From UHGV virus genome UHGV-1355336: DNA of 35,822 bases; one strand, written 5' to 3'. The notes under the pieces were generated by a model. That model ran no database searches. It saw only the letters and a program-made list of their open reading frames with translations, and was not told the DNA's origin. Position numbers and translations under genes: made by a program. Positions 1 through 30,932 of this stretch are shown piece after piece. The first letter of the stretch is position 1, and the number at the start of each line of letters is the position of its first letter. The stretch is from a virus.

Positions 1-2
1 GG

Positions 3-386: not shown

Positions 387-391
387 ATCCC

Positions 392-1704: not shown

Positions 1705-1722
1705 TGCAAAACATTTTATGTG

Positions 1723-1750
1723 AAACCGCCTGCGGGCGGTTTTGTCGTTT
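1723..1750 (+). terminator. Stem-loop between I and J (AAACCGCC-loop-GGCGGTTT then U-rich); possible attenuator or RNA structure
   Basis: Inverted repeat read directly in the 60-nt I-J spacer; U-tract is interrupted (TTGTCGTTT). Confidence 0.3.
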
Positions 1751-1764
1751 ATGGAGCGTGACGA

Positions 1765-5247: not shown

Positions 5248-5264
5248 ATTTTATAACCCAGAAC

Positions 5265-5290
5265 GGGCGTCAGAAATGACGCCTTTTTTA
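5265..5290 (+). terminator. Rho-independent terminator after J
   Basis: GGCGTCA-GAAA-TGACGCC hairpin followed by TTTTTT, 18 nt after the J stop. Confidence 0.6.
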
Positions 5291-5313
5291 TTGCAGAAAA
5301 GCGAGAGGTAATT

Positions 5314-5913
5314 ATGCGTAAACTTTATGCCGCCATTTTGTCCGCAGCCATTTGTCTGGCCGTATCCGGTGCGCCTGCATGGGCGTCTGAACATCAGTCC
5401 ACGCTGAGCGCGGGGTATCTTCATGCCCGGACGAACGTTCCCGGCAGTGATGATCTGAACGGGATTAACGTGAAATACCGTTATGAGTTTACGGACACAC
5501 TGGGGATGGTGACGTCGTTCAGCTATGCAGGAGACAAGAATCGCCAGATTACCCGTTACAGCGATACCCGCTGGCATGAAGATTCCGTTCGTAACCGCTG
5601 GTTCAGCGTAATGGCGGGGCCGTCTGTGCGCGTGAATGAATGGTTCAGCGCGTATGCGATGGCGGGTGTGGCTTACAGCCGTGTGTCGACTTTCTCCGGG
5701 GATTATCTCCGCGTAACTGACAACAAGGGGAAAAAGCACGATGTGCTGACCGGAAGTGATGACGGTCGCCACAGCAACACGTCTCTGGCGTGGGGAGCTG
5801 GCGTGCAGTTTAACCCGACCGAATCCGTGGCCATTGATGTCGCTTATGAAGGCTCCGGCAGTGGTGACTGGCGCACTGACGGGTTCATCGTGGGTGTTGG
5901 TTATAAATTCTGA
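5314..5913 (+). CDS. lom: Lom outer-membrane protein (Ail/Lom/OmpX family)
   Basis: 199 aa, signal peptide [24 protein letters not shown], beta-barrel pattern ending ...FIVGVGYKF; canonical position after J. Confidence 0.9.
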
Positions 5914-5939
5914 TTAGCCAGGTAACACAGTGTTATGAC

Positions 5940-5967
5940 AGCCCGCCGGTTCAGGCGGGCTTTTTTG
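5940..5967 (+). terminator. Rho-independent terminator after lom
   Basis: GCCCGCC-GGTTCA-GGCGGGC hairpin followed by TTTTTT. Confidence 0.65.
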
Positions 5968-5977
5968 TGGGGTGAAT

Positions 5978-8900
5978 ATGGCAGTAAAAATTTCAGGTGT
6001 ACTGAAAGACGGCACAGGAAAACCGGTACAGAACTGCACAATCCAGCTGAAAGCAAAACGTAACAGTACCACGGTGGTGGTGAACACGCTGGCATCTGAA
6101 AATCCGGATGAAGCCGGGCGTTACAGTATGGACGTTGAGTACGGTCAGTACAGCGTTATTCTGTTGGTGGAAGGATTCCCGCCGTCACATGCCGGGACCA
6201 TCACCGTGTATGAAGACTCACAACCGGGTACGCTGAATGATTTTCTCGGTGCCATGACGGAGGATGATGCCCGTCCGGAGGCACTGCGCCGTTTTGAGCT
6301 GATGGTGGAAGAGGTGGCGCGTAACGCGTCCGTGGTGGCACAGAACACGGCAGCCGCGAAGAAGTCAGCCAGCGATGCCGGCACATCAGCCCGTGAGGCG
6401 GCAACCCATGCGACTGATGCTGCAGGCTCAGCAAGCGCAGCCAGCACGTCAGCCGGACAGGCCGCGTCGTCGGCTCAGTCAGCATCTTCCAGCGCAGGAA
6501 CGGCATCAACAAAGGCCAGTGAAGCATCGAAAAGTGCTGCTGCTGCAGAGTCCTCAAAAAGCGCGGCAGCTACCAGTGCCGCTGCGGCGAAAACGTCAGA
6601 AACGAATGCGGCAGCGTCACAACAATCAGCAGCCACTTCTGCATCCGCCGCGACCACGAAGGCGTCAGAAGCAGCCACCTCAGCCCGGGATGCGGCGGCC
6701 TCAAAAGAGGCAGCGAAATCATCAGAAACGAACGCATCCTCGAGCGCCAGTAGTGCCGCTTCCTCGGCAACGGCGGCAGGCAATTCCGCGAAGGCGGCAA
6801 AGACGTCTGAGACAAACGCCAGGTCTTCTGAAACGGCAGCGGAACAGAGTGCCTCAGCTGCGGCAGGCTCAAAAACAGCGGCTGCGTCGTCTGCCAGTGC
6901 AGCGTCAACAAGTGCCGGGCAGGCCTCAGCCAGTGCTAGCGCCGCCGGAAAATCGGCAGAAAGCGCCGCATCGTCCGCTTCAACAGCCACAACGAAGGCT
7001 GGCGAAGCCACTGAACAGGCCAGCGCAGCAGCGAGGTCTGCTTCCGCAGCGAAGACATCCGAGACGAACGCGAAAGCGTCGGAAACCAGCGCAGAATCCT
7101 CAAAAACGGCTGCCGCATCGTCCGCCAGTTCGGCGGCGTCATCGGCATCATCTGCGTCTGCTTCAAAAGATGAGGCGACCAGACAGGCATCAGCAGCGAA
7201 AGGCAGCGCCACGACGGCATCCACGAAGGCGACAGAGGCAGCTGGTAGTGCGACGGCGGCAGCTCAGAGCAAAAGTACGGCGGAATCCGCGGCAACGCGC
7301 GCCGAGACAGCAGCAAAACGGGCAGAGGATATTGCATCCGCCGTGGCGCTTGAGGATGCAAGTACGACGAAAAAGGGGATAGTACAGCTCAGCAGTGCGA
7401 CCAACAGTACGTCTGAAACGCTGGCGGCAACGCCAAAGGCAGTAAAATCAGCCTATGACAATGCAGAGAAACGTCTGCAGAAAGACCAGAACGGCGCTGA
7501 TATACCCGATAAGGGACGCTTCCTGAACAACATTAACGCGGTCAGTAAAACAGACTTTGCTGATAAGCGTGGTATGCGTTATGTGCGGGTTAACGCTCCT
7601 GCAGGTGCAACATCTGGAAAATATTACCCTGTTGTTGTTATGCGTTCTGCTGGCTCAGTAAGCGAACTGGCATCAAGGGTCATTATCACCACGGCAACGC
7701 GAACCGCAGGCGATCCGATGAATAACTGCGAGTTTAACGGATTTGTTATGCCTGGTGGCTGGACTGACAGGGGGCGTTATGCTTATGGCATGTTCTGGCA
7801 ATATCAAAACAATGAACGAGCCATCCACTCAATAATGATGAGTAATAAGGGCGATGATTTGCGCTCTGTGTTCTATGTTGATGGCGCTGCTTTCCCTGTT
7901 TTTGCGTTTATCGAAGATGGCCTGTCAATATCCGCACCTGGTGCTGATCTCGTTGTTAATGATACGACCTATAAGTTTGGGGCAACAAATCCGGCGACTG
8001 AATGTATCGCGGCGGACGTTATCCTTGATTTTAAGAGTGGGCGTGGTTTTTATGAGTCTCATTCGTTAATCGTTAACGATAACTTGTCGTGCAAAAAACT
8101 TTTTGCCACAGACGAAATTGTAGCGCGTGGTGGTAATCAGATTCGAATGATAGGTGGGGAGTATGGGGCATTATGGCGTAATGATGGCGCTAAAACTTAC
8201 CTGCTGCTTACCAATCAAGGTGATGTTTATGGTGGATGGAATACATTAAGACCGTTTGCTATTGATAACGCAACCGGCGAACTGGTTATTGGAACCAAGC
8301 TGTCTGCAAGTCTGAACGGTAACGCATTGACAGCAACAAAGCTGCAAACGCCAAGACGGGTTTCTGGTGTTGAGTTTGATGGTTCCAGAGATATTACTTT
8401 AACCGCCGCGCATGTGGCTGCTTTTGCCAGAAGGGCAACGGATACGTATGCCGATGCGGATGGGGGCGTTCCATGGAATGCCGAATCAGGCGCTTACAAT
8501 GTCACCCGCTCTGGCGACAGCTATATTCTGGTTAACTTCTATACCGGAGTCGGAAGTTGCCGGACCTTGCAGATGAAGGCACATTACAGAAATGGAGGTC
8601 TGTTCTACCGTTCCTCAAGAGATGGCTATGGTTTTGAGGAAGACTGGGCAGAAGTTTATACCTCGAAAAATCTTCCACCAGAAAGCTACCCAGTCGGCGC
8701 ACCAATCCCGTGGCCATCAGATACCGTTCCGTCTGGTTATGCCCTGATGCAGGGGCAGACTTTTGACAAATCTGCTTACCCGAAACTTGCAGTTGCTTAT
8801 CCGTCAGGCGTGATCCCTGATATGCGTGGCTGGACGATTAAGGGCAAGCCCGCCAGTGGTCGTGCCGTATTGTCTCAGGAACAGGACGGCATTAAATCGC

Positions 8901-9328
8901 ACACCCACAGCGCCAGCGCATCCAGTACGGATTTGGGGACGAAAACCACATCGTCGTTTGATTACGGCACTAAATCCACGAATAACACTGGTGCGCATAC
9001 CCATAGTGTTAGCGGTACGGCTGCTTCAGCCGGTGCACATACCCATTCGATGACATTTGTTTCAGGTGGTTCCAGTGGTGCTCCGGGAAGTGGATCACCT
9101 GATTATTCTAAATACAGTGTTAACACTTCTTCTGCAGGCGCTCATACGCACTCTGTATCGGGTACTGCTGCAAGCGCAGGTGCACACGCACATACTGTCG
9201 GTATTGGTGCTCATACGCACTCCGTTGCGATTGGTTCACATGGACATACCATCACCGTTAACGCTGCTGGTAACGCGGAAAACACCGTCAAAAACATCGC
9301 ATTTAACTATATTGTGAGGCTTGCATAA
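5978..9328 (+). CDS. stf: Side tail fibre protein (Stf/StfR-like) with Ala/Ser-rich repeat rod and His-rich C-terminal domain
   Basis: ATG at 5978 gives [27 protein letters not shown]... (lambda Stf-like N-terminus); ~330 aa of low-complexity A/S/T repeats with recurring KTSETNA units; C-terminus has repeated GAHTHS / HxH motifs. Confidence 0.85.
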
Positions 9329-9912
9329 TGGCATTCAGAATGAGTGAACAACCACGGACCATAAAAATTTATAATCTGCTGGCCGGAACTAATGAATTTA
9401 TTGGTGAAGGTGACGCATATATTCCGCCTCATACAGGTCTGCCAGCAAACAGTACCGATATTGCACCGCCAGATATTCCGGCAGGCTTCGTGGCTGTTTT
9501 CAACAGTGATGAGGCATCGTGGCATCTCGTTGAAGATCATCGGGGTAAAACGGTTTATGACGTGGCTTCCGGCGACGCGTTATTTATTTCTGAACTCGGT
9601 CCGTTACCGGAAAATGCCACTTGGTTATCCCCGGAAGGGGAGTTTCAGAAGTGGAACGGCACAGCCTGGGTGAAAGATGCAGAAGCAGAAAAACTATTCC
9701 GGATCCGGGAGGCGGAAGAAACAAAAAACAGCCTGATGCAGGCAGCGAATGAGCATATTGCGCCACTTCAGGATGCTGTAGATCTGGAAATCGCAACGGA
9801 GGAAGAAACCTTGTTGCTGGAAGCCTGGAAAAAGTATCGGGTGTTGCTGAACCGTGTTGATACATCAACTGCACCTGATATTGAGTGGCCTACGAACCCT
9901 GTCAGGGAGTAA
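9328..9912 (+). CDS. tfa: Tail fibre assembly chaperone Tfa
   Basis: 194 aa, start overlaps stf stop (TAATG); [54 protein letters not shown]... is typical Tfa. Confidence 0.85.
9751..9867 (+). repeat. Direct repeat copy 1 (3' part of tfa); copy 2 lies in the downstream tfa fragment
   Basis: [30 protein letters not shown] coding stretch recurs near-identically at ~10800-10913. Confidence 0.6.
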
Positions 9913-9966
9913 TCATTGGGATTATGCCGCAGCACGTCTTAAGCAAGAACGTGCTGCGGTTGGATG

Positions 9967-10635
9967 CTATTTTTTCCCTGAAGCGGAAAACATTACTACA
10001 GTACCTTGAACCTTGGTTTTAACATTCTCGAAATGCTCTGAGAGTATATGTGTTAAGCCTTCTTCGGAATCTTTTGTGTTTGAAAAGATACCTTTCTGAT
10101 TGTAAATGCGCATCAGTTTTTGACCGAAGCTATTGTGCACAACTCCATCGCCAAGAATTGTGGCTCCGTATAGAGTTCCATCGTCAGTTAAGGCCTGCGC
10201 CGCATTGCGTATTACACAGCTTTTTGTAGATATATTTCCAGGCAGGCAGTGAAGAAGGTAAAACATGGAAATGGAATCAAATTGACCATGTAACGCCGCG
10301 GGATAAGGTTCAAAAACATCATGGCTAATTTTATGTTTAATTTTTGATTCCCCAGCCCTTGTAGATGCCGCGTTCAGGCTAGCTTCGTTCAAATCCATTA
10401 AAGATATCAGACTACTCTCAGGTACGTGAGTAAGGTAAAAACCAGTTCCAACACCAATATCCAGATGGTTGTTACCTAAATGTTCCAGAAAGTGTGGAAG
10501 AAGGTGTTCCTTTGTAGGACATCCCCATGCAAGCCGATTTGATACTCCCAAAACCCACCAGTCATAAAGCTTTAGGGTAAGTGGTGTGTAAATTTTAGCC
10601 CCATCATCTGTGTTTTTTTTCATTAATTTCACCAT
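9967..10635 (-). CDS. Class I SAM-dependent methyltransferase (small-molecule/protein type); resembles K-12 DLP12 ybcY but apparently intact
   Basis: 222 aa with motif I LDIGVGTGFYL; sits between tfa and a tfa fragment, the recalled ybcY position. Confidence 0.6.
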   Translation of the reverse strand: MVKLMKKNTDDGAKIYTPLTLKLYDWWVLGVSNRLAWGCPTKEHLLPHFLEHLGNNHLDIGVGTGFYLTHVPESSLISLMDLNEASLNAASTRAGESKIKHKISHDVFEPYPAALHGQFDSISMFYLLHCLPGNISTKSCVIRNAAQALTDDGTLYGATILGDGVVHNSFGQKLMRIYNQKGIFSNTKDSEEGLTHILSEHFENVKTKVQGTVVMFSASGKK

Positions 10636-10691
10636 GTTATAGTTTTATTTGTGAATTAAATCAATTATGGCGATGAATTACAAGGGGTTAA

Positions 10692-10997
10692 ATGCTGCCG
10701 CAGCATAGCGATATTGAAATAGCCTGGTATGCTTCGATACAGCAGGAGCCGAATGGCTGGAAGACCGTCACCACACAGTTCTACATCCAGGAATTCAGTG
10801 AGTATATTGCGCCACTGCAGGATGCTGTAGATCTGGAAATCGCAACGGAGGAAGAAAGATCGTTGCTGGAGGCATGGAATAAATATCGGGTGTTGTTGAA
10901 TCGAGTTGATACATCAGTAGCTCTGGGTATGAAGCTGTTTGTAACTCATGTTACAGTAACAGCCATTACTATCTCGAGGGTGCAAAATGTATATTGA
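10692..10997 (+). pseudogene. Tail fibre assembly gene fragment (tfaX-like remnant)
   Basis: Only the C-terminal Tfa-homologous block ([39 protein letters not shown]) is present; N-terminal part unrelated; track start is a non-ATG codon. Confidence 0.6.
10800..10913 (+). repeat. Direct repeat copy 2 (tfa 3' homology)
   Basis: Near-identical to 9751-9867 at nucleotide level (tattgcgccacttcaggatgctgtagatctggaaatcgcaacggaggaagaaa). Confidence 0.6.
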
Positions 10998-11124
10998 TTT
11001 GATATTTTATAAATTTACTTCGAATCTGGCACGTCAACTTTTGATTAAAGTAATATCAGTTTTCGGCGAAAAAAGGACCGTGTACATGAGACGATTTCAT
11101 ACAAGAATAACAAAAATATGAATA

Positions 11125-11160
11125 TGCTCCCAATGCAATATATGTTTTGCATTGGGAGCA
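11125..11160. terminator. 14-bp perfect-stem hairpin 20 nt downstream of the hydrolase gene
   Basis: TGCTCCCAATGCAA-tatatgtt-TTGCATTGGGAGCA; AT-rich flanks on both sides. Confidence 0.45.
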
Positions 11161-11180
11161 AATAGCGGAATATTTTGAAA

Positions 11181-12665
11181 TTATTGTATTTCTGCTTCAG
11201 AATTTCCTGGGCAGTATATATTTTCTGGTTTTTGTGGAGTGATCAGGTGATGTACAACTGCTTTATCTACACATAAATTAACTCCGGTGAGAGCTAATGT
11301 ATGCCCATCACCATTTATTGTTAGTAACGGGCTGGAAAATTTCTCTGCCATCTTACGGGCATTAATCCAGGGCGTTGTTGGGTCGTATTTGTGTGCTACA
11401 AACAGTAAACCAGAGGGCAGAACAGTATTTTTCAGGCGAGTTTTGTTCAGGTCGCTATGTATTGGCCATAATTCACAAAAATCAGGTGAATCGGAACGTC
11501 CATTGTCAAAGTTAATAGCCGGGAAGGCATTCGCAAGAGCGTCTTTTCGGGATTTTCGCTCTTCTGGTGTTAATTGCTCATCCCCCTGATCTACACAGAG
11601 GATTACCCCCGAAGCATCGCTTGACTCTTCTGAGGCTATCGGAGCACTGAGCGCAGTTTCAATTTCATTACTGACAATCCCCTGAGAGAACTGGCGTATG
11701 GCAGTTGCAAGGGTTGGCCATGATGAACGCCATAGCAGAAGGTCTGTTGTTAATGATATGAGTTCATCTGAAGATATATTTTCTCCCTTACTGTCTAATA
11801 AAGGTTTGTGATGTAATTTTGATAATAGCTCATGGAACTGAGTTATTGCCTTATCTCTGTCTGAAGAAAGCGGGCAACTTTTTGTACGCGCACACCAGGA
11901 TGCAAAGCGATCAAACGTTTCCTGATAACTCTGTGCCTGTTTGAGTTGCCATGTGAAGTTGTCCTCCAGGTCATCGATATCGACGACTCCATCAAGAACG
12001 ATAGATCTTACGTTGTAGGGAAAACGTTCTGCATATAAGGCTGCAATTTGAGTTCCATACGAATACGCCACGGCTGTCAGTTGTTTATCCCCCAAGGCTT
12101 GCCTAATACGATCAATATCGTATACAGCCTCGTTAGAGCCGATATGGCGAATGACTTCGGCCCCGGTATTATGGATACAGGCATTAATTTTATTTAATAC
12201 TTGTTGCTTTTCGGTTATGTTTTCCTGAGTCTCTGTATCTGATTGCCGGCAGTTTATTGTCGGAGTGGACTGTCCGACGCCTCGAGGATCAAATCCAATA
12301 ATATCCCATGACTCACGAAGATTTGTGACTGGCCAGTCAAAGTTAATATAAGGATTTATGCCTGGTAACCCGGGACCACCACTTATTATCAGGATACTTC
12401 CTTTATGCTTGCTTTTTGCCGGCAATTTTGTCAACGCTAGTTTGACTTGTGATTTTTTTTCATAAGAAGCATCTCCGCCTGTGTCTGTATATTTTAATGG
12501 AACAGACAAATAACCACATAGTAAGTCAGGAGACGGTTTTTCCTCACCAAACCAGTGGTTGAATTGACTGGCCATACAGGATTGCCACTGTATCTGCTGG
12601 GCAGATACGGTTACTGGTAGAAGTAACGTTAAAACAACTTTGAAATGAGTAATTATTTTTCGCAT
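11181..12665 (-). CDS. Secreted alpha/beta-fold hydrolase (peptidase/esterase-like), function unknown
   Basis: 494 aa; N-terminal signal peptide MRKIITHFKVVLTLLLPVTVSAQ; nucleophile-elbow-like VAYSYGT; AT-rich cargo context. Confidence 0.6.
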   Translation of the reverse strand: MRKIITHFKVVLTLLLPVTVSAQQIQWQSCMASQFNHWFGEEKPSPDLLCGYLSVPLKYTDTGGDASYEKKSQVKLALTKLPAKSKHKGSILIISGGPGLPGINPYINFDWPVTNLRESWDIIGFDPRGVGQSTPTINCRQSDTETQENITEKQQVLNKINACIHNTGAEVIRHIGSNEAVYDIDRIRQALGDKQLTAVAYSYGTQIAALYAERFPYNVRSIVLDGVVDIDDLEDNFTWQLKQAQSYQETFDRFASWCARTKSCPLSSDRDKAITQFHELLSKLHHKPLLDSKGENISSDELISLTTDLLLWRSSWPTLATAIRQFSQGIVSNEIETALSAPIASEESSDASGVILCVDQGDEQLTPEERKSRKDALANAFPAINFDNGRSDSPDFCELWPIHSDLNKTRLKNTVLPSGLLFVAHKYDPTTPWINARKMAEKFSSPLLTINGDGHTLALTGVNLCVDKAVVHHLITPQKPENIYCPGNSEAEIQ

Positions 12666-12851
12666 TGTGTCTCTGAATATCGGAATAAAGATAAGATTTG
12701 AATATATTGAGGTCTTGTGTTGCGGTAAGAGATTACACGTTATGACATAGGTTAAATGCTTACAAAATTAGTGGATATTGCCTACTTGTAACTGTAAACA
12801 AATTCCCCGGGGTTATACAATACCACCGGGGAGAAAATCTGGTTAACTTCG

Positions 12852-13805
12852 TTAAAAGGTGTACTTAAGACCAGCAGTAGTGATGAAGTTATAGTTTTCT
12901 ATGCCTGCACCATTTTTGCTGTAGTCTGAAGTGTTATCATTGTGATCATAAAGTGAAGTATTACCTTTTTTATTCGTAACCCGATTCCATGCGCCTTCAA
13001 CATAAACCTTTGCGTTAGGTGTTACGTAATAACCTGCATTGACTGCAACAGAATAGTAATTTTGGTCTTTGACTTTACTGCGATAAGTGATTCTTTTTCC
13101 TGGGTCATAGTGCTCATCGTTATCAGATGCTTCCACCCAGCCGCTGTATTTAAATGTGCCACCTAGCTCAAAATCTTCATAACGATAACTTCCAGTCAAG
13201 CCAATGTAGGGCATTTTAAAACGTTGTTTGTAGCCGATTGCTCTTTCTCCATTCGGGAAGGAGCCGATATCATCTCTGAATCCCTCCTCAGAACTGTAGA
13301 TATAGGAACCACCTCTGGCTGTAAAGCTATAACGGCTTTCCTGATATCCGGCCATGAGTCCCAGGCGGTAATTGGGTTCGTTGAGGAGCCAGCCTTTGAT
13401 ATTCAGATCAAATTCGTTGGCATAATTGAGTTGTGTATCAGGGTGCCTACTTTCATCTGTCCAGGTTCCGGGGTTACTGGAATCCATCCAGTCCTGATCG
13501 ACCATATTGCCACCTCGGCTGTCGAGAGTAGTCCAGCCCGCAGCCCCAATAGATATCTGGGGCATCAAATCCCAATTAATTGCACCTTTAATAATTGCAG
13601 CGTTATTGAATTTCCAGTCGAGTTGACTGACTTTTCGGCCTCCTTCTTCAGCTAGATAAACGCGCTCTTTTGTTTTTCCGCTCAGAGTTCCAAGACTAAT
13701 GTCCGCATTTATGTTGTCAGGAGTAAACGATATAGTCTCGGTAGAAGCAAAAGAGCTGATCGCAATAGGGGTTGTCAGAACTATTCCCAGAAGTTTCGCC
13801 CGCAT
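12852..13805 (-). CDS. ompT: Outer membrane protease OmpT (omptin)
   Basis: 317 aa; matches recalled E. coli OmpT over its whole length apart from a few substitutions (signal peptide MRKLLGIVLTTPIAISSFA..., ends ...ITTAGLKYTF). Confidence 0.9.
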   Translation of the reverse strand: MRAKLLGIVLTTPIAISSFASTETISFTPDNINADISLGTLSGKTKERVYLAEEGGRKVSQLDWKFNNAAIIKGAINWDLMPQISIGAAGWTTLDSRGGNMVDQDWMDSSNPGTWTDESRHPDTQLNYANEFDLNIKGWLLNEPNYRLGLMAGYQESRYSFTARGGSYIYSSEEGFRDDIGSFPNGERAIGYKQRFKMPYIGLTGSYRYEDFELGGTFKYSGWVEASDNDEHYDPGKRITYRSKVKDQNYYSVAVNAGYYVTPNAKVYVEGAWNRVTNKKGNTSLYDHNDNTSDYSKNGAGIENYNFITTAGLKYTF

Positions 13806-14227
13806 AAAAGTTCTCCATTCAATCGTTTTAATGATTGAATATGTATTTTTTATATCTAACTTAATGAGTCAATCACATATTGCTCCACTGTTTATATTTT
13901 GTTTAGTATTGAATGATTATCACAATGCGCTATCTGTTTTTGGTTTAATTATCTGTTATTATTTTATGTTGCGGTTTTACTGTGTGGTTTTTTATGCTTT
14001 TGTGGTGTTTTTATCTATTTAAGCGCCATGCCTTTAAAGGCATATAAGCGAAAATAGCATGAGGTTTATCCTCAATTGCTATGTTTTTTAGTACAAAAAA
14101 GAGGGACAAAACTGAGACACATAAGGCCTCACAATGGCTTGCAAGGCTTTACATGTTTTGAGGTAGTGGGACGTGTGAGCGCAGAGATGGCGCGGTAATT
14201 TGTTGACTTAAAATGTCGTTCTAGGAA

Positions 14228-14272
14228 CTTCTAAGTCGTGGGCCGCAGGTTCGAATCCTGCAGGGCGCGCCA
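14228..14272 (+). other. Phage attachment core: 3' terminal 45 nt of tRNA-Arg(UCU) (argU type); not a complete tRNA gene
   Basis: CTTCTAAGTCGTGGGCCGCAGGTTCGAATCCTGCAGGGCGCGCCA matches the recalled argU anticodon loop to CCA end; 5' half of the tRNA absent; integrase stop lies 16 nt downstream. Confidence 0.75.
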
Positions 14273-19781: not shown

Positions 19782-20976
<1,195 letters not shown>

Positions 20977-21703
20977 TTAGATCTACCAGCAAAGATCGGC
21001 TTTTCTTCCATGCTTCTTTTACTGGGGATGAGCCAATGTGAGATATTAAGCGTGAACAGATATCAAGATCGACATCACCAGGAAGAATATATAAGTTCTC
21101 TGGCATTTTTGTATTAACATCATGGGCTCGTACAAAGTAAGAAGATTCATTTCCTAAACGAGACAAAGGAGATTTGCTAAAACGCTCCTTGATATAACCT
21201 GCGATTGTAACATTTCTGTCTCGCAATTTATTTAGATTTTCTTCCCCGGTACCATTGCCACCAAGAATAATTTCTGAAACGTTTGATTGAGGGCATGAGT
21301 CAATAACCACAACATCTTGATCCGGATGAGATATAGCAAACTCAACGGCAAGATTATATGTAAGAAAAGTTTTTCCTACACCACCTTTGTTGTTCCATAC
21401 TAAATATTTTGTATTGGTGGAAATCATATCTGCTACCCCATCTGTCGCTTCAGTACGTTCATTAATCATTATCGTATCCTGTTGTATAGAATTGTCTATT
21501 ATTTATGTTTTATTTTGGTTTTTTTTGTGTTAGTAACGCACCCAAAGATAACATATGGTCTTTATCTTTTCTTACTTAGGGTAACAGCTCAGTGTTAATC
21601 CATTTTTATGGACCAATGTGCCAAATAAAATTTGTATAAAGATTTTCTATCCTTATCTTTTATCATCTGTGCTCGTTTGCTTTAACGATTGCTAGATGCC
21701 TAA

Positions 21704-22444
21704 TTAAAGTCGATTATATTTAATCGACTCATGAATCAGTGCCTTACCCATAACATAAAGCTGATCTTGCGACTTCTCATCAATGTACCATTTCTCATAG
21801 GCGGGGTTATCCGAAAGAACAGCTAGTTTGTTGCCTTGCATTTGTAGACGTTTAACATGGAAAGTCTTACCGTAAACGAAAGAGTAAACTCCATCAGTCT
21901 GGAAGTGGCGAACGGAAATGTCGACAAACAATCGATCCCCGGAAACAAGAGTTGGGGACATACTATCTCCATTTACCGTCATAACTTTTATATCATTCTG
22001 AGAACGGTTTCCGAAAAGAGAACGGGCATGTTCAGTTGTGAACTCAATGGCGTAGAGCACATCAACATAGTCTGAAAGCATATAGGTCCCAGGTCCTGCG
22101 CTAACGCTAAGATCCAAAACTTCTATCCTGTATACATCGGGCTTTGTTGGATTGGGGATGCTTGCCATTTCCTTACATTCCTCTCTATCTCCAACACCAT
22201 ATTCTAGATATGAAGCTGATACTCCAAGAGCCAACGCAAGTTTACTCATGACAGAGACACGTGGCTTCGCTGCGCCGATTGTGTATCGACGAGCCATTTC
22301 ATATGTAACGCCCACAAGACTTTTGAGTTGAGTGACAGAGATTCCTTTGATTGTCATCAATTCGTTTAGTCTCTTGGCGAAATCTGGATACTTCTGTTCT
22401 TCTACCATAGGTAGAAGATTACTCACATCACACGCGCTAGTCAT
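21704..22444 (-). CDS. CI-like prophage repressor (HTH plus S24 LexA-type autopeptidase domain); start codon uncertain (22444 or 22408)
   Basis: C-terminal VNGDSMSPTL...K motif pattern of S24 peptidases; N-terminal HTH; divergent to a cro-like gene; no SD before candidate ATGs. Confidence 0.75.
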   Translation of the reverse strand: MTSACDVSNLLPMVEEQKYPDFAKRLNELMTIKGISVTQLKSLVGVTYEMARRYTIGAAKPRVSVMSKLALALGVSASYLEYGVGDREECKEMASIPNPTKPDVYRIEVLDLSVSAGPGTYMLSDYVDVLYAIEFTTEHARSLFGNRSQNDIKVMTVNGDSMSPTLVSGDRLFVDISVRHFQTDGVYSFVYGKTFHVKRLQMQGNKLAVLSDNPAYEKWYIDEKSQDQLYVMGKALIHESIKYNRL

Positions 22445-22446
22445 TT

Positions 22447-22484
22447 CTATTTTAAGTAGTTGCAATTTGCTATTTTAAGTAGCA
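22447..22484. promoter_or_regulatory. Right operator region: two copies of CTATTTTAAGTAG spaced 23 bp; second sits in 17-mer TGCTATTTTAAGTAGCA
   Basis: Direct reading of the cI-cro intergenic region; 17-mer matches the OL candidate at 14 of 17 positions. Confidence 0.5.
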
Positions 22485-23735: not shown

Positions 23736-24683
23736 ATGAGCACTAAATTAACCGGCTATGTATGGGATGGTTGCGCTGCGTCAGGCATGAAGTTATCCAG
23801 CGTGGCAATTATGGCCCGCCTGGCTGATTTCAGTAATGACGAAGGTGTGTGCTGGCCATCAATTGAAACCATTGCCCGCCAGATTGGCGCGGGGATGAGC
23901 ACCGTCAGAACGGCTATCGCACGGCTGGAAGCAGAAGGCTGGTTAACGCGTAAGGCGCGTCGCCAGGGTAACCGCAATGCGTCGAATGTTTATCAGCTTA
24001 ACGTTGCGAAGCTTCAGGCAGCGGCATTTTCTCAACTGTCAGATTCTGACCCGTCAAAATCTGACGCATCAAAATCTGACCAGTCAAAATTTGATGCGTC
24101 GAAATCTGGCAAAAAAGCGGGTTTTCACCCGTCAGAATCTGGCGGGGATCCGTCAGTAAAATCAAAACATGATCCGTCAGATAAAAAAACTTCTCGTCCG
24201 GACGCTTCGCAACCGGACACGCAGACGGCTGAACAGGAGTTTTTAACTCGCCATCCTGATGCGGTTGTATTCAGCCCTAAAAAGCGCCAGTGGGGAACGC
24301 AGGATGATTTGACCTGCGCACAGTGGCTCTGGAAAAAAATCATCGCCCTGTACGAGCAGGCCGCCGAATGTGACGGCGAGGTGGTTCGTCCCAAAGAACC
24401 GAACTGGACAGCATGGGCAAACGAAATTCGCCTGATGTGTGTGCAGGATGGTCGTACTCACAAACAAATCTGCGAGATGTACAGCCGCGTCAGCCGCGAT
24501 CCGTTCTGGTGCCGTAACGTGCTCAGCCCGTCGAAGCTGCGGGAAAAATGGGATGAGCTTTCCCTGCGCTTATCGCCGTCCGTCAGCACGTACACCGAAA
24601 AACGCGAAGACCCGTACTTCAAAGCCAGTTACGACAACGTGGACTACAGCCAGATCCCGGCAGGATTCAGGGGGGGATCATGA
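23736..24683 (+). CDS. Replication initiator (lambda O-like) with internal origin iterons
   Basis: 315 aa; N-terminal winged-helix-like region; central DPSKSDASKSDQSKFDASKSG encoded by tandem 15-bp repeats; position after cro/cII-type genes. Confidence 0.65.
   Translation: MSTKLTGYVWDGCAASGMKLSSVAIMARLADFSNDEGVCWPSIETIARQIGAGMSTVRTAIARLEAEGWLTRKARRQGNRNASNVYQLNVAKLQAAAFSQLSDSDPSKSDASKSDQSKFDASKSGKKAGFHPSESGGDPSVKSKHDPSDKKTSRPDASQPDTQTAEQEFLTRHPDAVVFSPKKRQWGTQDDLTCAQWLWKKIIALYEQAAECDGEVVRPKEPNWTAWANEIRLMCVQDGRTHKQICEMYSRVSRDPFWCRNVLSPSKLREKWDELSLRLSPSVSTYTEKREDPYFKASYDNVDYSQIPAGFRGGS
24039..24188. repeat. Iteron array (candidate ori): ~5 tandem 15-bp units of consensus CCGTCAAAATCTGAC plus 3 spaced copies and an A-rich tract
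   Basis: Repeats read directly: ccgtcaaaatctgac / gcatcaaaatctgac / cagtcaaaatttgat / gcgtcgaaatctggc / ccgtcagaatctggc ... followed by gataaaaaaac. Confidence 0.65.
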
Positions 24684-25168
24684 GTCTTTTGAATGACGTT
24701 CAGAAATTCATTGAAGCCCATCCGGGGTGTACTTCCGGAGACATTGCGGATGCTTTTGCAGGTTACTCACGACAGCGCGTTCTGCAGTCAGCAAGCAAGT
24801 TACGTCAGAGTGGGCGTGTGGCTCACCGTTGTGAAGGGGATACACGCAGACATTTCCCGCGGCTGACTGAGATACCGCAGGAGCCGGAACCGCAACCAGT
24901 TCGTGAATCCAGACCTGTGCGCAATTTCTATGTCGGCACTAACGATCCCCGGGTGATTTTGTGCCTGACCCGCCAAGCGGAAGAACTGGAGTCCAGGGGC
25001 TTATACCGTCGTGCTGCAACGGTGTGGATGGCGGCATTCCGTGAAAGCCACTCCCAGCAAGAGCGAAACAATTTTCTTGCGCGTCGTGAGCGGTGTTTAC
25101 GGAAAAGCAGCAAGCGCGCTGTATCGGGTGAAGAGTGGTATCTGTCAGGGAATTACGTGGGGGCTTAA
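24680..25168 (+). CDS. Hypothetical nin-region protein
   Basis: 162 aa, start overlaps the O-like stop (ATGA). Confidence 0.45.
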   Translation: MSLLNDVQKFIEAHPGCTSGDIADAFAGYSRQRVLQSASKLRQSGRVAHRCEGDTRRHFPRLTEIPQEPEPQPVRESRPVRNFYVGTNDPRVILCLTRQAEELESRGLYRRAATVWMAAFRESHSQQERNNFLARRERCLRKSSKRAVSGEEWYLSGNYVGA

Positions 25169-25494
25169 TGACGACGTTAACTCAATGCCAGCAGCAGGTG
25201 CTGGATATGCTGATTTCTTACCAGAAAGAACGTGGCTTCCCGCCAACCAATCAGGAGGTGGCTACCATGCTGGGATACCGTTCAGTGAATGCAGCGGTGG
25301 AGCATCTTCGCGCACTGGAGAAAAAAGGCGTCATCACGATAAAGCGTGGCGTGGCCCGGGGCATCACGCTTCATACCGCGGTGAAGGACGACGACAGCGA
25401 GGTGGCCGGGATTATCCGCGCACTGCTTGCTGGTGAGGAAAACGCCAGGCTGCGTGCAGCCCACTGGTTACATGAGAGGGGGCTGAAAGTATGA
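25168..25494 (+). CDS. LexA N-terminal DNA-binding-domain homologue lacking the peptidase domain
   Basis: MTTLTQCQQQVLDMLISYQKERGFPPTNQEVATMLGYRSVNAAVEHLRALEKKGVI parallels LexA [56 protein letters not shown]; only ~109 aa. Confidence 0.6.
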   Translation: MTTLTQCQQQVLDMLISYQKERGFPPTNQEVATMLGYRSVNAAVEHLRALEKKGVITIKRGVARGITLHTAVKDDDSEVAGIIRALLAGEENARLRAAHWLHERGLKV

Positions 25495-25880
25495 AGCTGA
25501 TTCTGCCTTTTCCACCCAGCGTGAACACCTACTGGCGACACCCCAACAAAGGGGCATTTGCTGGTAAGAGCCTGATAAGCGCGGCGGGGCGAAAATTCCA
25601 GAGTGCGGCGTGCACAGCAATAGTTGAGCAGTTACGTCGTCTGCCGAAACCAACGTCGGCACCTGCTTCAGTGGAGATCGTGTTGTTTCCTCCGGATAAC
25701 CGGATCCGCGATCTGGACAACTATAACAAGGCGCTGTTTGACGCCCTGACCCACGCGGGTGTGTGGGAAGACGACAGCCAGGTGAAAAGAATGCTGGTGG
25801 AGTGGGGACCGGTTATCCCGGAAGGGAAGGTCGAGATCACTATCAGTAAGTACGAGAAAACGGCGGGTGCAGCCGCCTGA
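25491..25880 (+). CDS. rusA: RusA-family Holliday junction resolvase
   Basis: MKLILPFPPSVNTYWRHPNKG...DLDNYNKALFDALTHAGVWEDDSQV is the RusA signature. Confidence 0.85.
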   Translation: MKLILPFPPSVNTYWRHPNKGAFAGKSLISAAGRKFQSAACTAIVEQLRRLPKPTSAPASVEIVLFPPDNRIRDLDNYNKALFDALTHAGVWEDDSQVKRMLVEWGPVIPEGKVEITISKYEKTAGAAA

Positions 25881-25899
25881 TCAAGAGGAGAAACGAAGT

Positions 25900-26897
25900 A
25901 TGAATAATCTGATGGTCATTGATGGTATTGAAGTTCGTCGTGATGCTTATGGGCGTTACAGCCTGAACGATCTGCATCGNNNNNNNNNNNNNNNNNNNNN
26001 NNNNNNNNNNNNNNNNNNNNNNNNNNNNNNNNNNNNNNNNNNNNNNNNNNNNNNNNNNNNNNNNNNNNNNNNNNNNNNNGTATTGAAGTTCGTCGTGATG
26101 CTTATGGGCGTTACAGCCTGAACGATCTGCATCGGGCTGCTGTTGTATTTGGTGCAAATGCCAGAACTAAGGAGCCGGGAAAGTTTCTTTCCAGCCAACA
26201 GATTACTGAGCTGGTTCAGGAATTGATCGATACCCAAAATTTGGGTGTCGGTTCATTCAATGAAACTACCCAAAATTTGGGTAGTAAACCAGTAAGTAAA
26301 ATAGAAGGGCGGAATGGAGGAACGTATGTCTGCAAGGAACTGGTGTATGCCTATGCAATGTGGATCAGCCCGTCATTCCATCTGAAGGTGATCCGTACTT
26401 TCGATATGGTAACCAGCACACCGGAAAAATTATCCGGGCAGGCTGCTGACAAGATGCAGGCTGGCGTGATCCTGCTGGACTTTATGCGCCGGGAATTAAA
26501 CCTGTCTAAGTCATCAGTGCTTGGAGCCTGTCAGAAGCTTCAGGAGGCTGTTGGCTTACCGAATCTGGCACCGCGCTATGCCATTGATGCTCCTGCTGAC
26601 GCGCCTGATGGCTCAAGTCGCCCCACGCTGTCGCTGAGTGCACTGCTGAAACAGTATGGTATCCGCCTGACGGCTAATCAGGCATATCACCAGATGGTGA
26701 AGCTGGGGATCGTTGAACAACGCGAACGATACAGCCGTACCGCGATTAACAACATCAAAAAATTCTGGTCGCTGACGGCGAAAGGCTGCATGTTCGGCAA
26801 GAACATCACCAGTCCTGCAAATCCGCGCGAGACGCAGCCGCATTTCTTCGAATCCCGATTCCCTGAGCTGTTAAAGCTGCTCGATACCGTTCATTGA
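25900..26897 (+). CDS. KilA-N domain protein (antirepressor/Roi-like), interrupted by an assembly gap
   Basis: MNNLMVIDGIEVRRDAYGRYSLNDLHRAA... (KilA-N-like); frame continues past the N-run to 26897; flanks of the gap duplicate the same ~55 nt. Confidence 0.55.
25980..26079. other. Assembly gap (100 N) flanked by duplicated sequence
   Basis: Run of N; GTATTGAAGTTCGTCGTGATGCTTATGGGCGTTACAGCCTGAACGATCTGCATCG occurs both just before and just after the gap. Confidence 0.95.
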
Positions 26898-26898
26898 G

Positions 26899-27894
26899 GT
26901 GACCGTGAGAGCACTACTGACCCCTGAAATTGCCCCGCGTATGGGGATCGTATTGTTCAGGCCAGGTTCAGAGCTGATGCCCCTGTTTATGCAGGGGCGT
27001 GTCCTGCTGGAGCCTGAGCCGGAACGTTATTCATCTTTCGCCAGTGGTGCCGTTCCGGCGGCATCACAACCGCTGGCGGATGATCCTGCCGTTCGGGCCG
27101 TGTTCCGCAATGAGGCAGTGATCCGTCGTGCTGGTGGCGTGGAATGTCTTGAAAGCTGGTTACTTCGTGAAAAGGGCTGTCAGTGGCCTCATTCCGACTG
27201 GCACAGCGAGAACATGACCACAATGCGACACGCGCCGGGCGCAATTCGTCTGTGTTGGCACTGCGATAACCAGTTGCGTGATCAGTTCACGGAACGGCTG
27301 GAATCAATGGCAACGGATAACTGTGCCCACTGGGTGTTATCTGTCGTGCGTCGGGATCTCGGTTTTGATGACAGTCACGTAGTGACAATGCCGGAACTGT
27401 GCTGGTGGCTGGTTCGTAATGACCTGGCGGATGCCTTACCGGAAAGTGCAGCCCGTAAGGCACTGAGATTACCGAAGCCGGTTGTGCCGTCTGTCACCCG
27501 GGAGAGTGACCTTGTTCCTTCGGTTCCTGCCACCAGCATTATCCAGGATAAAGCGAAAAAGGTGCTGGCGCTGAAAGTGGAGCCAGAGTCGCCGGAGTCT
27601 TTTATGTTACGCCCAAAACGTCGCCGCTGGGTTAATGAAAAGTACACGCGCTGGGTTAAGACACAGCCGTGTGCATGTTGTGGAAAGCCTGCTGATGATC
27701 CCCACCACCTGATAGGCCATGGTCAGGGTGGAATGGGTACAAAAGCGCATGACCTCTTTGTGTTGCCTTTGTGCAGAAAGCATCACGACGAGCTGCATGC
27801 GGATACCGTGGCATTTGAAGAGATGTATGGCTCCCAGCTGGAGCTGATATTTCGTTTTATCGATCATGCGCTGGCAATAGGCGTACTGGCGTAA
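26899..27894 (+). CDS. DUF968-type protein with HNH-like zinc-binding C-terminus (YdfU-like)
   Basis: 331 aa; C-terminal CACCGKPADDPHHLIGHGQGGMGTKAHDLFVLPLCRKHHDELH; directly upstream of Q. Confidence 0.55.
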   Translation: MTVRALLTPEIAPRMGIVLFRPGSELMPLFMQGRVLLEPEPERYSSFASGAVPAASQPLADDPAVRAVFRNEAVIRRAGGVECLESWLLREKGCQWPHSDWHSENMTTMRHAPGAIRLCWHCDNQLRDQFTERLESMATDNCAHWVLSVVRRDLGFDDSHVVTMPELCWWLVRNDLADALPESAARKALRLPKPVVPSVTRESDLVPSVPATSIIQDKAKKVLALKVEPESPESFMLRPKRRRWVNEKYTRWVKTQPCACCGKPADDPHHLIGHGQGGMGTKAHDLFVLPLCRKHHDELHADTVAFEEMYGSQLELIFRFIDHALAIGVLA

Positions 27895-27907
27895 GTGGAG
27901 AACGAGC

Positions 27908-28660
27908 ATGAACCTTGAAGCCTTACCAAAATATTACTCCCCAAAATCTCCAAAATTGAGCGATGACGCACCGGCGACAGGCTCAGGTGGTTTAACGATT
28001 ACGGATGTGATGGCTGCGCAGGGGATGGTGCAGTCGAAAGCACCGCTTGGGTTTGCCTTATTCCTGGCAAAAGTTGGTGTTCAGGATCCTCAGTTTGCGA
28101 TTGAAGGTCTGCTCAATTACGCGATGGCAATGGATAACCCGACATTGAACAAATTGAGTGAAGAAACCCGGTTACAGATCATCCCTTACCTTGTGAGTTT
28201 TGCCTTTGCTGATTATTCCAGGTCTGCGGCAAGTAAGGCTCGCTGTGAGCATTGTGCTGGTACTGGATTTCATAGTGTATTGCGCGAAGTGGTGAAACAC
28301 TCCAGAAGCGGGGAATCTGTTATCAAGGAAGAGTGGGTGAAGGAATTATGTCAGCATTGCCATGGTAAGGGAGAAGTCAGCACGGCTTGCAGAGGGTGTA
28401 AGGGTAAAGGCATTGTCCTGGATGAAAAAAGAACCCGGCTTCATGGCGCGCCTGTTTATAAGATTTGTGGGCGTTGCAATGGAAACCGGTTTAGTCGTTT
28501 ACCGACCACACTGGCACGACGTCATGTCCAGAAGCTGGTACCAGACCTGACTGATTATCAGTGGTACAAAGGATATGCAGACGTCATTGATAAACTGGTA
28601 ACAAAGTGCTGGCAGGAAGAAGCATTCGCTGAAGCACAATTGAGAAAGGTGACGAGATAA
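27908..28660 (+). CDS. Q: Late-gene antiterminator Q (QuuQ-type, 250 aa)
   Basis: Cys-rich zinc-binding region (CEHCAGTG...CQHCHGKG...CRGCKGKG...CGRCNG); followed by promoter-like sequence and an intrinsic terminator. Confidence 0.75.
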   Translation: MNLEALPKYYSPKSPKLSDDAPATGSGGLTITDVMAAQGMVQSKAPLGFALFLAKVGVQDPQFAIEGLLNYAMAMDNPTLNKLSEETRLQIIPYLVSFAFADYSRSAASKARCEHCAGTGFHSVLREVVKHSRSGESVIKEEWVKELCQHCHGKGEVSTACRGCKGKGIVLDEKRTRLHGAPVYKICGRCNGNRFSRLPTTLARRHVQKLVPDLTDYQWYKGYADVIDKLVTKCWQEEAFAEAQLRKVTR

Positions 28661-29870: not shown

Positions 29871-30932
29871 ATGAAAAACACTGTAAAAATAAACAGTATT
29901 GATTTAATCAACGCTGATTGCCTGCATTTTATTCAGTCCCTGCCTGATGATTCCATTGACCTGATTGTTACCGATCCGCCTTACTTCAAGGTGAAACCCA
30001 ACGGTTGGGACAATCAGTGGAAAGGGGACGAAGATTACCTTAAGTGGCTGGACCACTGTCTGGCCCAGTTCTGGCAGGTGTTGAAACCTGCCGGAAGCCT
30101 TTACCTGTTCTGTGGGCATCGCCTGGCATCTGATATTGAGATCATGATGCGTGAACGTTTCAACGTGCTTAACCATATCATCTGGGCGAAGCCGTCCGGA
30201 CGTTGGAATGGGTGTAATAAAGAAAGTCTGCGCGCATATTTTCCTGCCACAGAGCGCGTTCTGTTTGCTGAACATTACCGGGGGCCATATCGCGGCAAAA
30301 GTGACGGCTATGTGGCAAAAGAAAGGGAACTCAAACAGCACATAATGGCACCGCTGATATCGTATTTCAGGGATGCTCGTGCCGAACTGGGTATAACGGC
30401 AAAACAAATTGCCGAAGCCACAGGTAAGAAAAATATGGTTTCCCACTGGTTTGGTGCCAGTCAGTGGCAGTTGCCGAATGAGGCTGACTACCGGAAGTTA
30501 CAGGCACTGTTTTCCCGTATAGCGGCAGAGAAGTTTCAGGAACAACAACTGGAACAACCACACCACCAGTTGGTGGCATCTTATGATTCACTGAATCGCA
30601 AATATTCTGAATTGCTGGATGAGTTTAAATCTCTCCGGCGCTATTTCTCCGTATCAGTCTCCGTGCCTTATACCGATGTCTGGATGCATAAACCCGTTCA
30701 GTTCTACCCGGGTAAACATCCGTGTGAGAAACCGGCGGATATGCTCAGGCAAATAATCAATGCCAGTAGTCGACCCGGCGATCTGGTTGCTGATTTCTTT
30801 ATGGGATCCGGTTCCACAATAAAAGCAGCAATGGCGCTGGGGCGTCGGGCGTTAGGTGTTGAGCTTGAGACAGAGCGGTTTAATCAGACCATCCAGGAAA
30901 TCAGTATGTTATCAGCAAATACAATTTTGTGA
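29871..30932 (+). CDS. DNA methyltransferase, beta-class (motif IV DPPY before motif I FxGxG); likely N6-adenine, orphan
   Basis: VTDPPYF near the N-terminus and DFFMGSGST near the C-terminus; no adjacent restriction endonuclease candidate. Confidence 0.8.
   Translation: MKNTVKINSIDLINADCLHFIQSLPDDSIDLIVTDPPYFKVKPNGWDNQWKGDEDYLKWLDHCLAQFWQVLKPAGSLYLFCGHRLASDIEIMMRERFNVLNHIIWAKPSGRWNGCNKESLRAYFPATERVLFAEHYRGPYRGKSDGYVAKERELKQHIMAPLISYFRDARAELGITAKQIAEATGKKNMVSHWFGASQWQLPNEADYRKLQALFSRIAAEKFQEQQLEQPHHQLVASYDSLNRKYSELLDEFKSLRRYFSVSVSVPYTDVWMHKPVQFYPGKHPCEKPADMLRQIINASSRPGDLVADFFMGSGSTIKAAMALGRRALGVELETERFNQTIQEISMLSANTIL

Follow-up and report, generated by a model that had tools for sequence, protein, structure and literature searches.

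What use does a prophage make of half a LexA repressor? The question is raised by the window, i.e., the whole stretch of DNA that was analysed (35,822 nucleotides, UHGV virus genome UHGV-1355336), which carries on its plus strand a gene whose product resembles the DNA-binding half of LexA and ends where the self-cleaving half would begin. Such a protein could occupy the boxes of LexA (SOS boxes) and keep the corresponding promoters shut once LexA itself has been destroyed, or it could serve another site and another purpose. By its identity and its architecture, the product is almost certainly a stand-alone LexA-type winged-helix DNA-binding protein. From the sequence comparisons, its most likely role is that of an uninducible SOS-box repressor made early in the lytic cycle, to which we give a probability of about 0.4. 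The gene and the parts of its product are as follows:

25168..25494, plus strand: coding sequence of the LexA-N-terminal-domain-like protein, stop codon counted in (open reading frame (ORF) list, sequence, PF01726, phrog_362)
25168..25371, plus strand: residues 1-68, LexA-type winged helix-turn-helix (HTH) domain (LexA alignment, AlphaFold, Foldseek)
25285..25323, plus strand: residues 40-52, recognition helix VNAAVEHLRALEK (residue table, AlphaFold)
25372..25389, plus strand: residues 69-74, flexible linker (lowest predicted local distance difference test score, pLDDT, in the model, below 50 at residues 71-75)
25390..25476, plus strand: residues 75-103, two-helix hairpin (helices 75-87 and 93-103), putative dimerisation module (AlphaFold, homologue conservation)

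The LexA-like protein and its parts

The similarity to LexA is confined to the first 68 residues and is complete there. Indeed, the protein matches the entire Pfam model LexA_DNA_bind (PF01726, positions 1-65/65, expectation value E=2.9e-19), and BLASTP aligns it without any gap to E. coli LexA, from residue 1 to residue 68 on both sides, with 35 identical residues out of 68 (51%, E=2e-21). The top matches found by phmmer in the Protein Data Bank are LexA chains as well (1lea and 3jso, E ~1e-15). The AlphaFold model, built from 16 aligned sequences and with a mean pLDDT of 80.7, contains the elements of a winged helix, i.e., helices 6-22, 28-35, and 40-52 and strands 56-58 and 66-68. It superposes on DNA-bound LexA 3jso with a root-mean-square deviation (rmsd) of 1.0 Å over 66-67 residues, and Foldseek gives an rmsd of 1.0-1.2 Å between the model and 1lea/3jso.

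The protease half is missing. No match to Peptidase_S24 (PF00717) was obtained in the protein, which ends at residue 108, the next ORF being RusA. Without a C-terminal domain, the protein has no Ser119-Lys156 dyad of canonical LexA. Moreover, the NCBIfam lexA equivalog TIGR00498 reaches 67.4 bits, below its cut-off of 110.95, and aligns over model positions 1-91/203 alone. Because a 30-residue helical hairpin replaces everything past the LexA hinge, the prophage protein cannot answer activated RecA (RecA*) by self-cleavage. It is not a LexA repressor proper: it fails on the S24 domain, on the cleavage site, on the equivalog score, and on the possession of an SOS box of its own.

The product consists of 108 amino acids (aa), MTTLTQCQQQVLDMLISYQKERGFPPTNQEVATMLGYRSVNAAVEHLRALEKKGVITIKRGVARGITLHTAVKDDDSEVAGIIRALLAGEENARLRAAHWLHERGLKV. 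Its ATG at 25168, with a run of G residues just before it, shares one base with the TAA of the upstream perC-like gene (TAATG), and its TGA at 25492-25494 overlaps the ATG of the downstream rusA gene (ATGA). An upstream in-frame GTG at 25135 is an unlikely start because the aligned full-length homologues start at the M-T-x-L-T position. An earlier reading of the same stretch, made from the sequence only (the sequence-only reading), had seen here a phage gene for a protein of ~109 aa that parallels the LexA N-terminal domain and lacks the autocleavage domain. It placed the ORF at 25168-25494 exactly, the length alone being off by one since 109 counts the stop codon. The hidden Markov model search that it had proposed, with its PF01726 match, and the ungapped alignment bear out the likeness to LexA. 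The absence of Peptidase_S24, the equivalog score below cut-off, and the adjoining RusA gene confirm the loss of the S24 domain, and the lambdoid prophage context described below agrees with a phage gene.

The gene is not new. The protein matches phrog_362 at E=7e-58 (residues 1-108 against profile positions 1-106/106) and is an ordinary PHROG 362 member, and the identical region of E. coli W137 is already annotated in RefSeq as WP_000210176.1, "LexA family transcriptional regulator". The window copy is 94-100% identical to the listed phage genes of this PHROG 362/RefSeq family, which lie in the same place upstream of rusA. Literature searches found no functional or experimental study of the PHROG 362 family, and the PADLOC defence library gave no meaningful match.

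The residues by which LexA reads its box are largely conserved. The base-contacting LexA residues are reported to be Ser39, Asn41, Ala42, Glu44, and Glu45 (PMC3091678). At these five positions, the window protein has S, N, A, V, and E, i.e., four of the five as in LexA: S39 immediately precedes the recognition helix, inside which N41, A42, and E45 are kept while E44 is replaced by Val. Aligning the contact residues, as the sequence-only reading had suggested, thus shows the LexA residue at S39, N41, A42, and E45 and another one at position 44. The wing residues K53, G54, G61, R64, and G65 are also kept as in LexA. Among 12 tail-bearing PHROG 362 representatives, Ser39 is found in all 12, Asn41 in 11, and Ala42 and Glu45 in 9 each.

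Past the linker, the protein has a module of its own. This non-LexA tail is kept in homologues of ~105-135 aa (one being called at 165 aa) whose overall identity is as low as 39-48%. Its motif is ~E..hhR.LL......AR..A..hL...G, in which L86, L87, A97, and L101 are nearly invariant, and when the tail is searched alone, phrog_362 is the sole match. In the monomer model, each tail helix bears one hydrophobic stripe, as is usual in hairpins whose pairing yields four-helix bundles. Because the hairpin is conserved and each of its helices carries such a stripe, the model suggests that the tail probably takes over the dimerisation lost with the S24 domain. The N-terminal domains of DNA-bound LexA touch each other and help to fix the operator spacing (PMC3159453); therefore, a pair of flexibly tethered domains could still measure the 16-bp box.

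The first tail helix also aligns with the cleavage-site region of LexA (LLAGEE versus VAAGEP), A88-G89 of the window protein standing opposite A84-G85 of LexA. The homologues have AN, VG, TR, ER, or DD there. Because Ala-Gly is not kept across the PHROG 362 family, we rejected a working or vestigial cleavage site; the likeness, as far as the alignment tells, is probably the evolutionary scar of a truncated lexA.

Compared with E. coli LexA (1LEA, 3JSO), the prophage protein thus shares the winged-helix fold, the ungapped 51% identity over residues 1-68, four of the five base contacts, and most of the wing residues. It differs by the absence of the S24 domain and of the Ser-Lys dyad, by the replacements of Glu44 with Val and of Arg28 with Asn, by the family-specific hairpin past the hinge, and by the lack of an SOS box found for its own gene in the window.

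Operon, boxes, and the sister clade

The genes that define the setting of the LexA-like gene are the following:

21704..22465, minus strand: CI-type repressor, HTH_3 + Peptidase_S24 (PF00717 E=2e-16, PF01381)
23736..24683, plus strand: O-like replication initiator, which heads the gene string (phrog_391 E=1e-134, HTH_36)
24680..25168, plus strand: perC/yfdN-like regulator, directly upstream of the LexA-like gene and in the conserved block (PF06069 PerC E=9e-10, phrog_1324)
25491..25880, plus strand: rusA, Holliday-junction resolvase, directly downstream (PF05866 E=7e-15)
26899..27894, plus strand: DUF968/HNH-like gene, last of the conserved block, in 74-75 of 80 related viral loci (PF06147 E=6e-80)
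27908..28660, plus strand: late antiterminator Q, which closes the delayed-early operon (PF03589 E=2e-53)

From ~14229 onward, the window is 100% identical to a lambdoid prophage found beside tRNA-Arg and intD (the DLP12 site of E. coli K-12) in several complete E. coli genomes. The HTH_3 + S24 gene indicates that this prophage already owns a CI-type repressor, of the kind that cleaves itself under RecA*. Past this gene, the plus strand carries a Cro-like gene (YdaS-family HTH in the reference annotation), a CII-like gene, and then the O-like initiator. The order that follows (replication gene, perC-like, LexA-like, rusA, kilA-N, DUF968, and Q, the KilA-N gene sitting between rusA and the DUF968 gene) is that of a delayed-early, nin-type operon. 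No plus-strand promoter-like site was detected between 21400 and 30200. Because the start and stop codons overlap and this interval has no such site, we infer that one transcript from the early rightward promoter covers the replication genes and the LexA-like gene; the latter is presumably also translationally coupled to its neighbours. Early co-transcription would imply production of the protein upon induction or infection but not in the quiescent lysogen. Late gene expression in the prophage should require the Q antiterminator.

This position is stable over large distances. Indeed, a nin-type location between the replication genes and Q, beside rusA and/or DUF968, holds in homologues down to 39% identity, and rusA comes next after the LexA-like gene, or one small ORF away, in homologues down to ~41% identity. 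On the upstream side, the perC/yfdN-like protein has a MarR-like winged helix at its N-terminus (PHROG match at residues 6-58) and a PerC domain at its C-terminus (residues 98-150); therefore, two putative transcription factors adjoin in the conserved block.

The gene is also widespread. We found it in 2233 of 5426 complete E. coli genomes (41%), with up to four copies per genome, and in 51-61 phage records, including SfV (orf42), SfII, SfIV, mEp460, cdtI, and the Shiga toxin (Stx) phages Stx2a, Stx2c, and Stx2k. In these records, its label varies from "unknown" to "LexA DNA binding domain protein" and, wrongly, "SOS-response repressor and protease LexA". In a survey of Stx phages, the gene figures as a pfam01726-only pham, pham 237 (PMC8136144). 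A scan of genome contigs with the family alignment returned nearly only host lexA genes and one true relative, in Kosakonia.

To describe what travels with the gene, we used 80 related IMG/VR contigs whose protein is 96-100% identical to that of the window. A block of DNA homology from ~24600 to 27900 (perC-like gene through DUF968) is present in 73-80 of them, whereas just 0-26 match the window in the immunity region and the Q allele. Inside the block, one 100-bp bin within the KilA-N gene falls to 29 contigs. The LexA-like gene is therefore not tied to particular CI/Cro operators or to a Q specificity, the Q allele of the window being common to just 20-26 of the 80 loci. This independence argues for a host or generic target and against an immunity-specific phage operator.

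Selection was followed in 80 copies of the gene (79 of the 80 related contigs plus the window itself). They comprise 50 DNA alleles and only 12 protein variants, with a ratio of nonsynonymous to synonymous polymorphism (pN/pS) of 0.05 overall, 0.011 over residues 1-68, and 0.10 over residues 69-108. The LexA-like gene is thus a working gene under strong purifying selection and not a remnant. The sequence-only reading had overlooked that the family is already annotated and very common, that the gene belongs to the early lytic operon rather than to lysogeny, and that the protein has a conserved second, C-terminal module.

We then looked for target sites with a position weight matrix (PWM) made from an approximate set of 25 E. 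coli SOS boxes (training median of 20.2 bits). The window has one strong box:

29879..29898, no strand assigned: strong LexA (SOS) box CACTGTAAAAATAAACAGTA (PWM 22.2 bits; 0/100 shuffles reached 20 bits)

This sole strong SOS box of the window lies downstream of Q, within the opening codons of an N6/N4 DNA methyltransferase gene of the late region (29871-30932, PF01555), and box and methyltransferase occur together in ~22 of the 80 related viral contigs. The box is kept in Citrobacter phage phiNP, which has no annotated LexA-like or rusA gene between its replication genes and Q. For this reason, it belongs to the methyltransferase module, and we rejected it as the cognate target. It is probably a genuine site of host LexA; the prophage protein could share it, which is not evidence for the target of that protein.

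No conserved operator travelling with the gene was found among the inverted repeats between 21400 and 30000 or by the SOS matrix on the window and 12 related loci. Variants of the type CTNT-N8-ANAG and CTGT/ACAG pairs at spacings of 4-13 bp gave no candidate site in the prophage either. Indeed, the conserved block 24600-27900 is almost wholly coding, with gaps of 0-20 bp, and this scarcity of non-coding DNA argues against a co-travelling cis target and for a host or generic one.

Two other kinds of sites deserve mention. A near-perfect 15-bp palindrome, ACCCAAAATTTGGGT, occurs in two copies ~36 bp apart (26232-26283) inside the KilA-N coding sequence, where it encodes a repeated TQNLG. As an operator, this pair was rejected, being present in just 2 of the 80 related loci; the 100-bp stretch that holds it is the one poorly shared segment of the conserved block. 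In related prophages, the stretch coding for the interdomain linker of CI-type (HTH + S24) repressors also holds very strong SOS-like boxes of 25-26 bits (TACTGTTTTTATATACAGTA), at positions 4094-4113 of locus L101, 836-855 of locus L002, and in 17 further related contigs.

Outside the immediate relatives of the window, the link with LexA becomes visible. A sister clade, carried by Klebsiella-type lambdoid prophages, is 39-43% identical to the window protein, has the same tail, and falls in PHROG 362 (P0138, P0191, P0212). In 25 of 28 IMG/VR loci of this clade, a canonical LexA box (17-29 bits) stands 437-689 bp upstream of the gene, and in the remaining three, boxes lie further upstream. In the examples read, the boxes adjoin or overlap -10/-35-like hexamers. 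Boxes of at least 17 bits number 41 in 271 kb, versus 0.2 in shuffles. The positions are as follows:

L174: LexA box at 513-532
L175: LexA box at 4242-4277
L009: LexA box at 4560-4579
L180-L206 and L213: LexA boxes ~440-690 bp upstream of the match

Between the box and the sister-clade gene, most loci have dinI, some a RecA_C-like gene (L175, L204, L205), and others neither. Then comes a 75-82-aa ORF (phrog_1813) at the antirepressor position, directly before the LexA-like gene, which is itself followed by a 66-67-aa ORF (phrog_1212), sometimes rusA, DUF968, and Q. Klebsiella-type loci keep the gene with DUF968 although rusA is absent. This arrangement puts the sister-clade gene under LexA control and ties the family to the SOS circuit, which makes an SOS-related function more likely.

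A similar operon is known in Salmonella, where the Gifsy prophages are induced through a LexA-controlled dinI-antirepressor-irsA operon (PMC3121763). The sister clade shares with it the box and promoter, dinI, a small ORF at the antirepressor position, a third gene, the 66-67-aa ORF, a nuclease gene, and Q, and its 66-67-aa ORF has 37% identity with the gene found at the equivalent place in Gifsy-2. Hence, in the sister clade, the LexA-domain protein fills the irsA slot of an SOS-inducible operon. We considered the Gifsy irsA homologue as a PHROG 362 member and rejected it, the Gifsy-2 irsA homologue being DUF1367. Between GftA and the small upstream ORF of the sister clade, no similarity was detectable. 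The window gene differs from this scheme in having neither a LexA box nor dinI upstream, and its prophage has a CI-type S24 repressor.

Possible roles of the protein

How could an uncleavable LexA-like protein act? In the mechanism that we favour, the hairpin would supply the dimerisation of the prophage protein, and the dimer would recognise a LexA-box-like palindrome with CTGT-type half-sites, possibly relaxed at the base that LexA reads with Glu44. Such a palindrome is the most economical target to predict from the contact residues, a relaxed or shifted specificity being a real possibility. Made from the early lytic operon just when host LexA is destroyed, the protein would behave as an uninducible repressor at LexA-controlled promoters. 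Host SOS genes would then be damped or reset, and the LexA-controlled antirepressor operons of co-resident prophages would be damped too. The sequence-only reading had likewise proposed that a non-cleavable binder could occupy SOS boxes or phage operators and alter induction or host SOS genes, which is a plausible hypothesis. The functional analogy is with the LexA Ind- mutants and the LexA 1-84 fragment, which illustrate how an uncleavable LexA-type binder would hold SOS promoters repressed despite RecA*. These are variants of the host gene with a wild-type recognition helix, whereas the prophage protein has diverged as a paralogue, with a tail of its own and a changed position 44. The LexA fragment has residual repressor activity. 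In the host, cleaved LexA fragments are degraded by ClpXP and Lon (PMC3159453).

The mechanism can be extended to the whole of PHROG 362, a step that we regard as doubtful. The family would then consist of uncleavable LexA surrogates that shut LexA promoters again after the destruction of host LexA: the window type would silence host SOS genes and the LexA-controlled antirepressor operons of rival prophages, and the Klebsiella type would act in negative feedback within its own LexA-box/dinI/antirepressor operon, giving an SOS pulse. Indeed, an uncleavable LexA surrogate expressed from a LexA-box promoter would give negative feedback.

Several observations speak against repression at SOS boxes. 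Position 44 is acidic in none of the 12 representatives (V, A, T, F, L, or Y), and the position of LexA Arg28 is basic in none of them, being Asn in the window protein. The largest dinI-linked clade (SPNAVALHLR) has no Glu45 either. Because Glu44 is lost family-wide, and Glu45 in one clade, the binding specificity may have drifted from that of LexA. No SOS box of at least 9 bits was found by the PWM scan upstream of the LexA-like gene in the window, and the sister clade shows regulation by LexA, not action at LexA boxes. Dimerisation through the tail is drawn from a monomer model on a shallow alignment of 16 sequences. Lastly, the sole characterised analogue, gp6 of the Bacillus tectivirus GIL01, works as an activator and fails to bind LexA boxes (PMC6182141).

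This last protein deserves a closer comparison. Itself a truncated LexA homologue, it turns on the late promoter P3 from a site of its own, distinct from the SOS box (PMC6182141). Like the window protein, gp6 is a phage-encoded LexA DNA-binding domain without the cleavage domain, and both match PF01726. It differs in its length (66 aa), in the absence of a C-terminal hairpin, the window protein having an extra 40-aa tail, in its descent from the Gram-positive LexA lineage, and in belonging to a tectivirus. BLASTP of the window protein against gp6 gave no alignment at E<=100. Rather than an orthologue, gp6 is the product of an analogous capture. Predicted viral structures often include stand-alone LexA-domain proteins, from many unrelated phages. 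As a separate observation, the proteins P0129, P0130, P0146, and P0150-P0153 carry two tandem LexA DNA-binding domains per chain (a covalent "dimer") and no S24 domain.

A retargeted regulator of the gp6 kind is therefore a possible, if tentative, alternative: the window protein would bind an operator of its own, distinct from SOS boxes, and activate or repress a phage or host promoter so as to time the early-to-late programme, with no direct effect on SOS boxes. The precedent of gp6 itself, with its distinct site and its activation at P3, points that way (PMC6182141), as do the family-wide substitutions at positions 44 and 28, the loss of Glu45 in one clade, the generic "regulator" labels of PHROG and RefSeq, and the recurrence of stand-alone LexA domains in unrelated phages. 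Such a regulator would need an operator, and the co-travelling block 24600-27900 is nearly all coding with no obvious promoter or operator, the immunity and Q modules vary freely, and the scans for variant sites gave no candidate, the palindrome pair being limited to 2/80 loci. Moreover, four of the five contact residues remain LexA-like. The linkage with rusA and DUF968 could instead reflect a non-transcriptional role, i.e., that of a DNA-binding accessory of the O-like initiator, RusA, or the DUF968-HNH protein, for instance in junction resolution or replication restart. From 97% down to ~40% identity, the gene does keep its place shortly before rusA (immediately or one small ORF away) and/or DUF968, with start and stop codons often overlapping. 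We consider this role improbable: rusA can be absent while the gene is kept, as in Klebsiella-type loci; RusA genes of lambdoid phages commonly occur without a LexA-like gene; the recognition helix is as strongly constrained (pN/pS 0.011) as expected of sequence-specific binding; and common membership of one mosaic module explains the linkage equally well.

The tail, for its part, could act by protein-protein contact, mimicking a substrate or serving as a decoy; its partner would be RecA* or one of the S24 proteases (LexA, CI, or UmuD). The NCBIfam lexA model does align as far as position 91 and puts LLAGEE opposite VAAGEP with its Ala84-Gly85. This is a very remote prospect, given that Ala-Gly is replaced by AN, VG, TR, ER, or DD in the family, that the segment is predicted to be helical and not an extended strand-loop, and that conservation within the protein peaks at the DNA-binding surface. 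As for a functionless, decaying remnant of a captured lexA, the resemblance to a truncated LexA and the frequent mislabelling as "SOS-response repressor and protease LexA" could suggest it. The selection and conservation data effectively refute it in sequence terms: pN/pS is 0.05 over 50 alleles, the full-length family, including the non-LexA tail, is conserved down to 39% identity, and the gene is intact in 2223 complete E. coli genomes.

SOS-box repression in the early lytic phase, the reading that we prefer, would have broad consequences. The SOS response governs prophage induction, Shiga-toxin release, mutagenesis, and persistence, and Stx2, cdt, and serotype-converting phages are among those that have the gene. 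It is one of the commonest E. coli prophage genes and is already catalogued (RefSeq, PHROG 362, Pfam PF01726-only). If LexA boxes are indeed re-repressed by its product, then prophages would actively edit the DNA-damage response of their host and the induction of each other. Extended to the whole of PHROG 362, the reading that we regard as doubtful, this would mean inter-prophage competition in polylysogens and, given its presence in 41% of complete E. coli genomes, a widespread and unrecognised layer of SOS control. Its abundance in phages of pathogenic E. coli and the LexA-box/dinI context of the sister clade make the gene a worthwhile experimental target.

Other features of the window

The part of the window ahead of intD (1-14228) carries a tail tip J gene (1765-5247), a side tail fibre gene (5972-9328), a methyltransferase gene, an alpha/beta hydrolase gene, and an omptin gene (12852-13805). 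No tRNA gene was detected in 1-14228, and the match to the reference starts inside the tRNA-Arg of the latter. Such a junction points to tandem prophages at the tRNA-Arg (argU) site or, alternatively, to a scaffold join.

An insertion sequence-type DDE transposase gene (DDE_Tnp_1 + DUF772, 19850-20842) seemingly interrupts a ParA-family gene that is intact in W137. A ParA/CbiA-like fragment is left at 20930-21469, and the interval 19800-20900 is covered by no related viral contig. Inside the KilA-N gene, a run of 100 N (25980-26079) is bordered on either side by the same 55-bp sequence (gtattgaagttcgtcgtgatgcttatgggcgttacagcctgaacgatctgcatcg). Because the reference strain has a single copy of these 55 bp and no gap, the N run is an artefact of scaffolding, a gap between contig ends that overlap.

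Finally, an iteron-like cluster of inverted repeats lies at 24038-24100 inside the O-like gene (GTCAGATTCTGAC, GTCAAAATCTGAC, GACGCATCAAAATCTGAC / GTCAAAATTTGATGCGTC). By analogy with the lambda ori, which lies inside gene O, this cluster is probably the phage origin.

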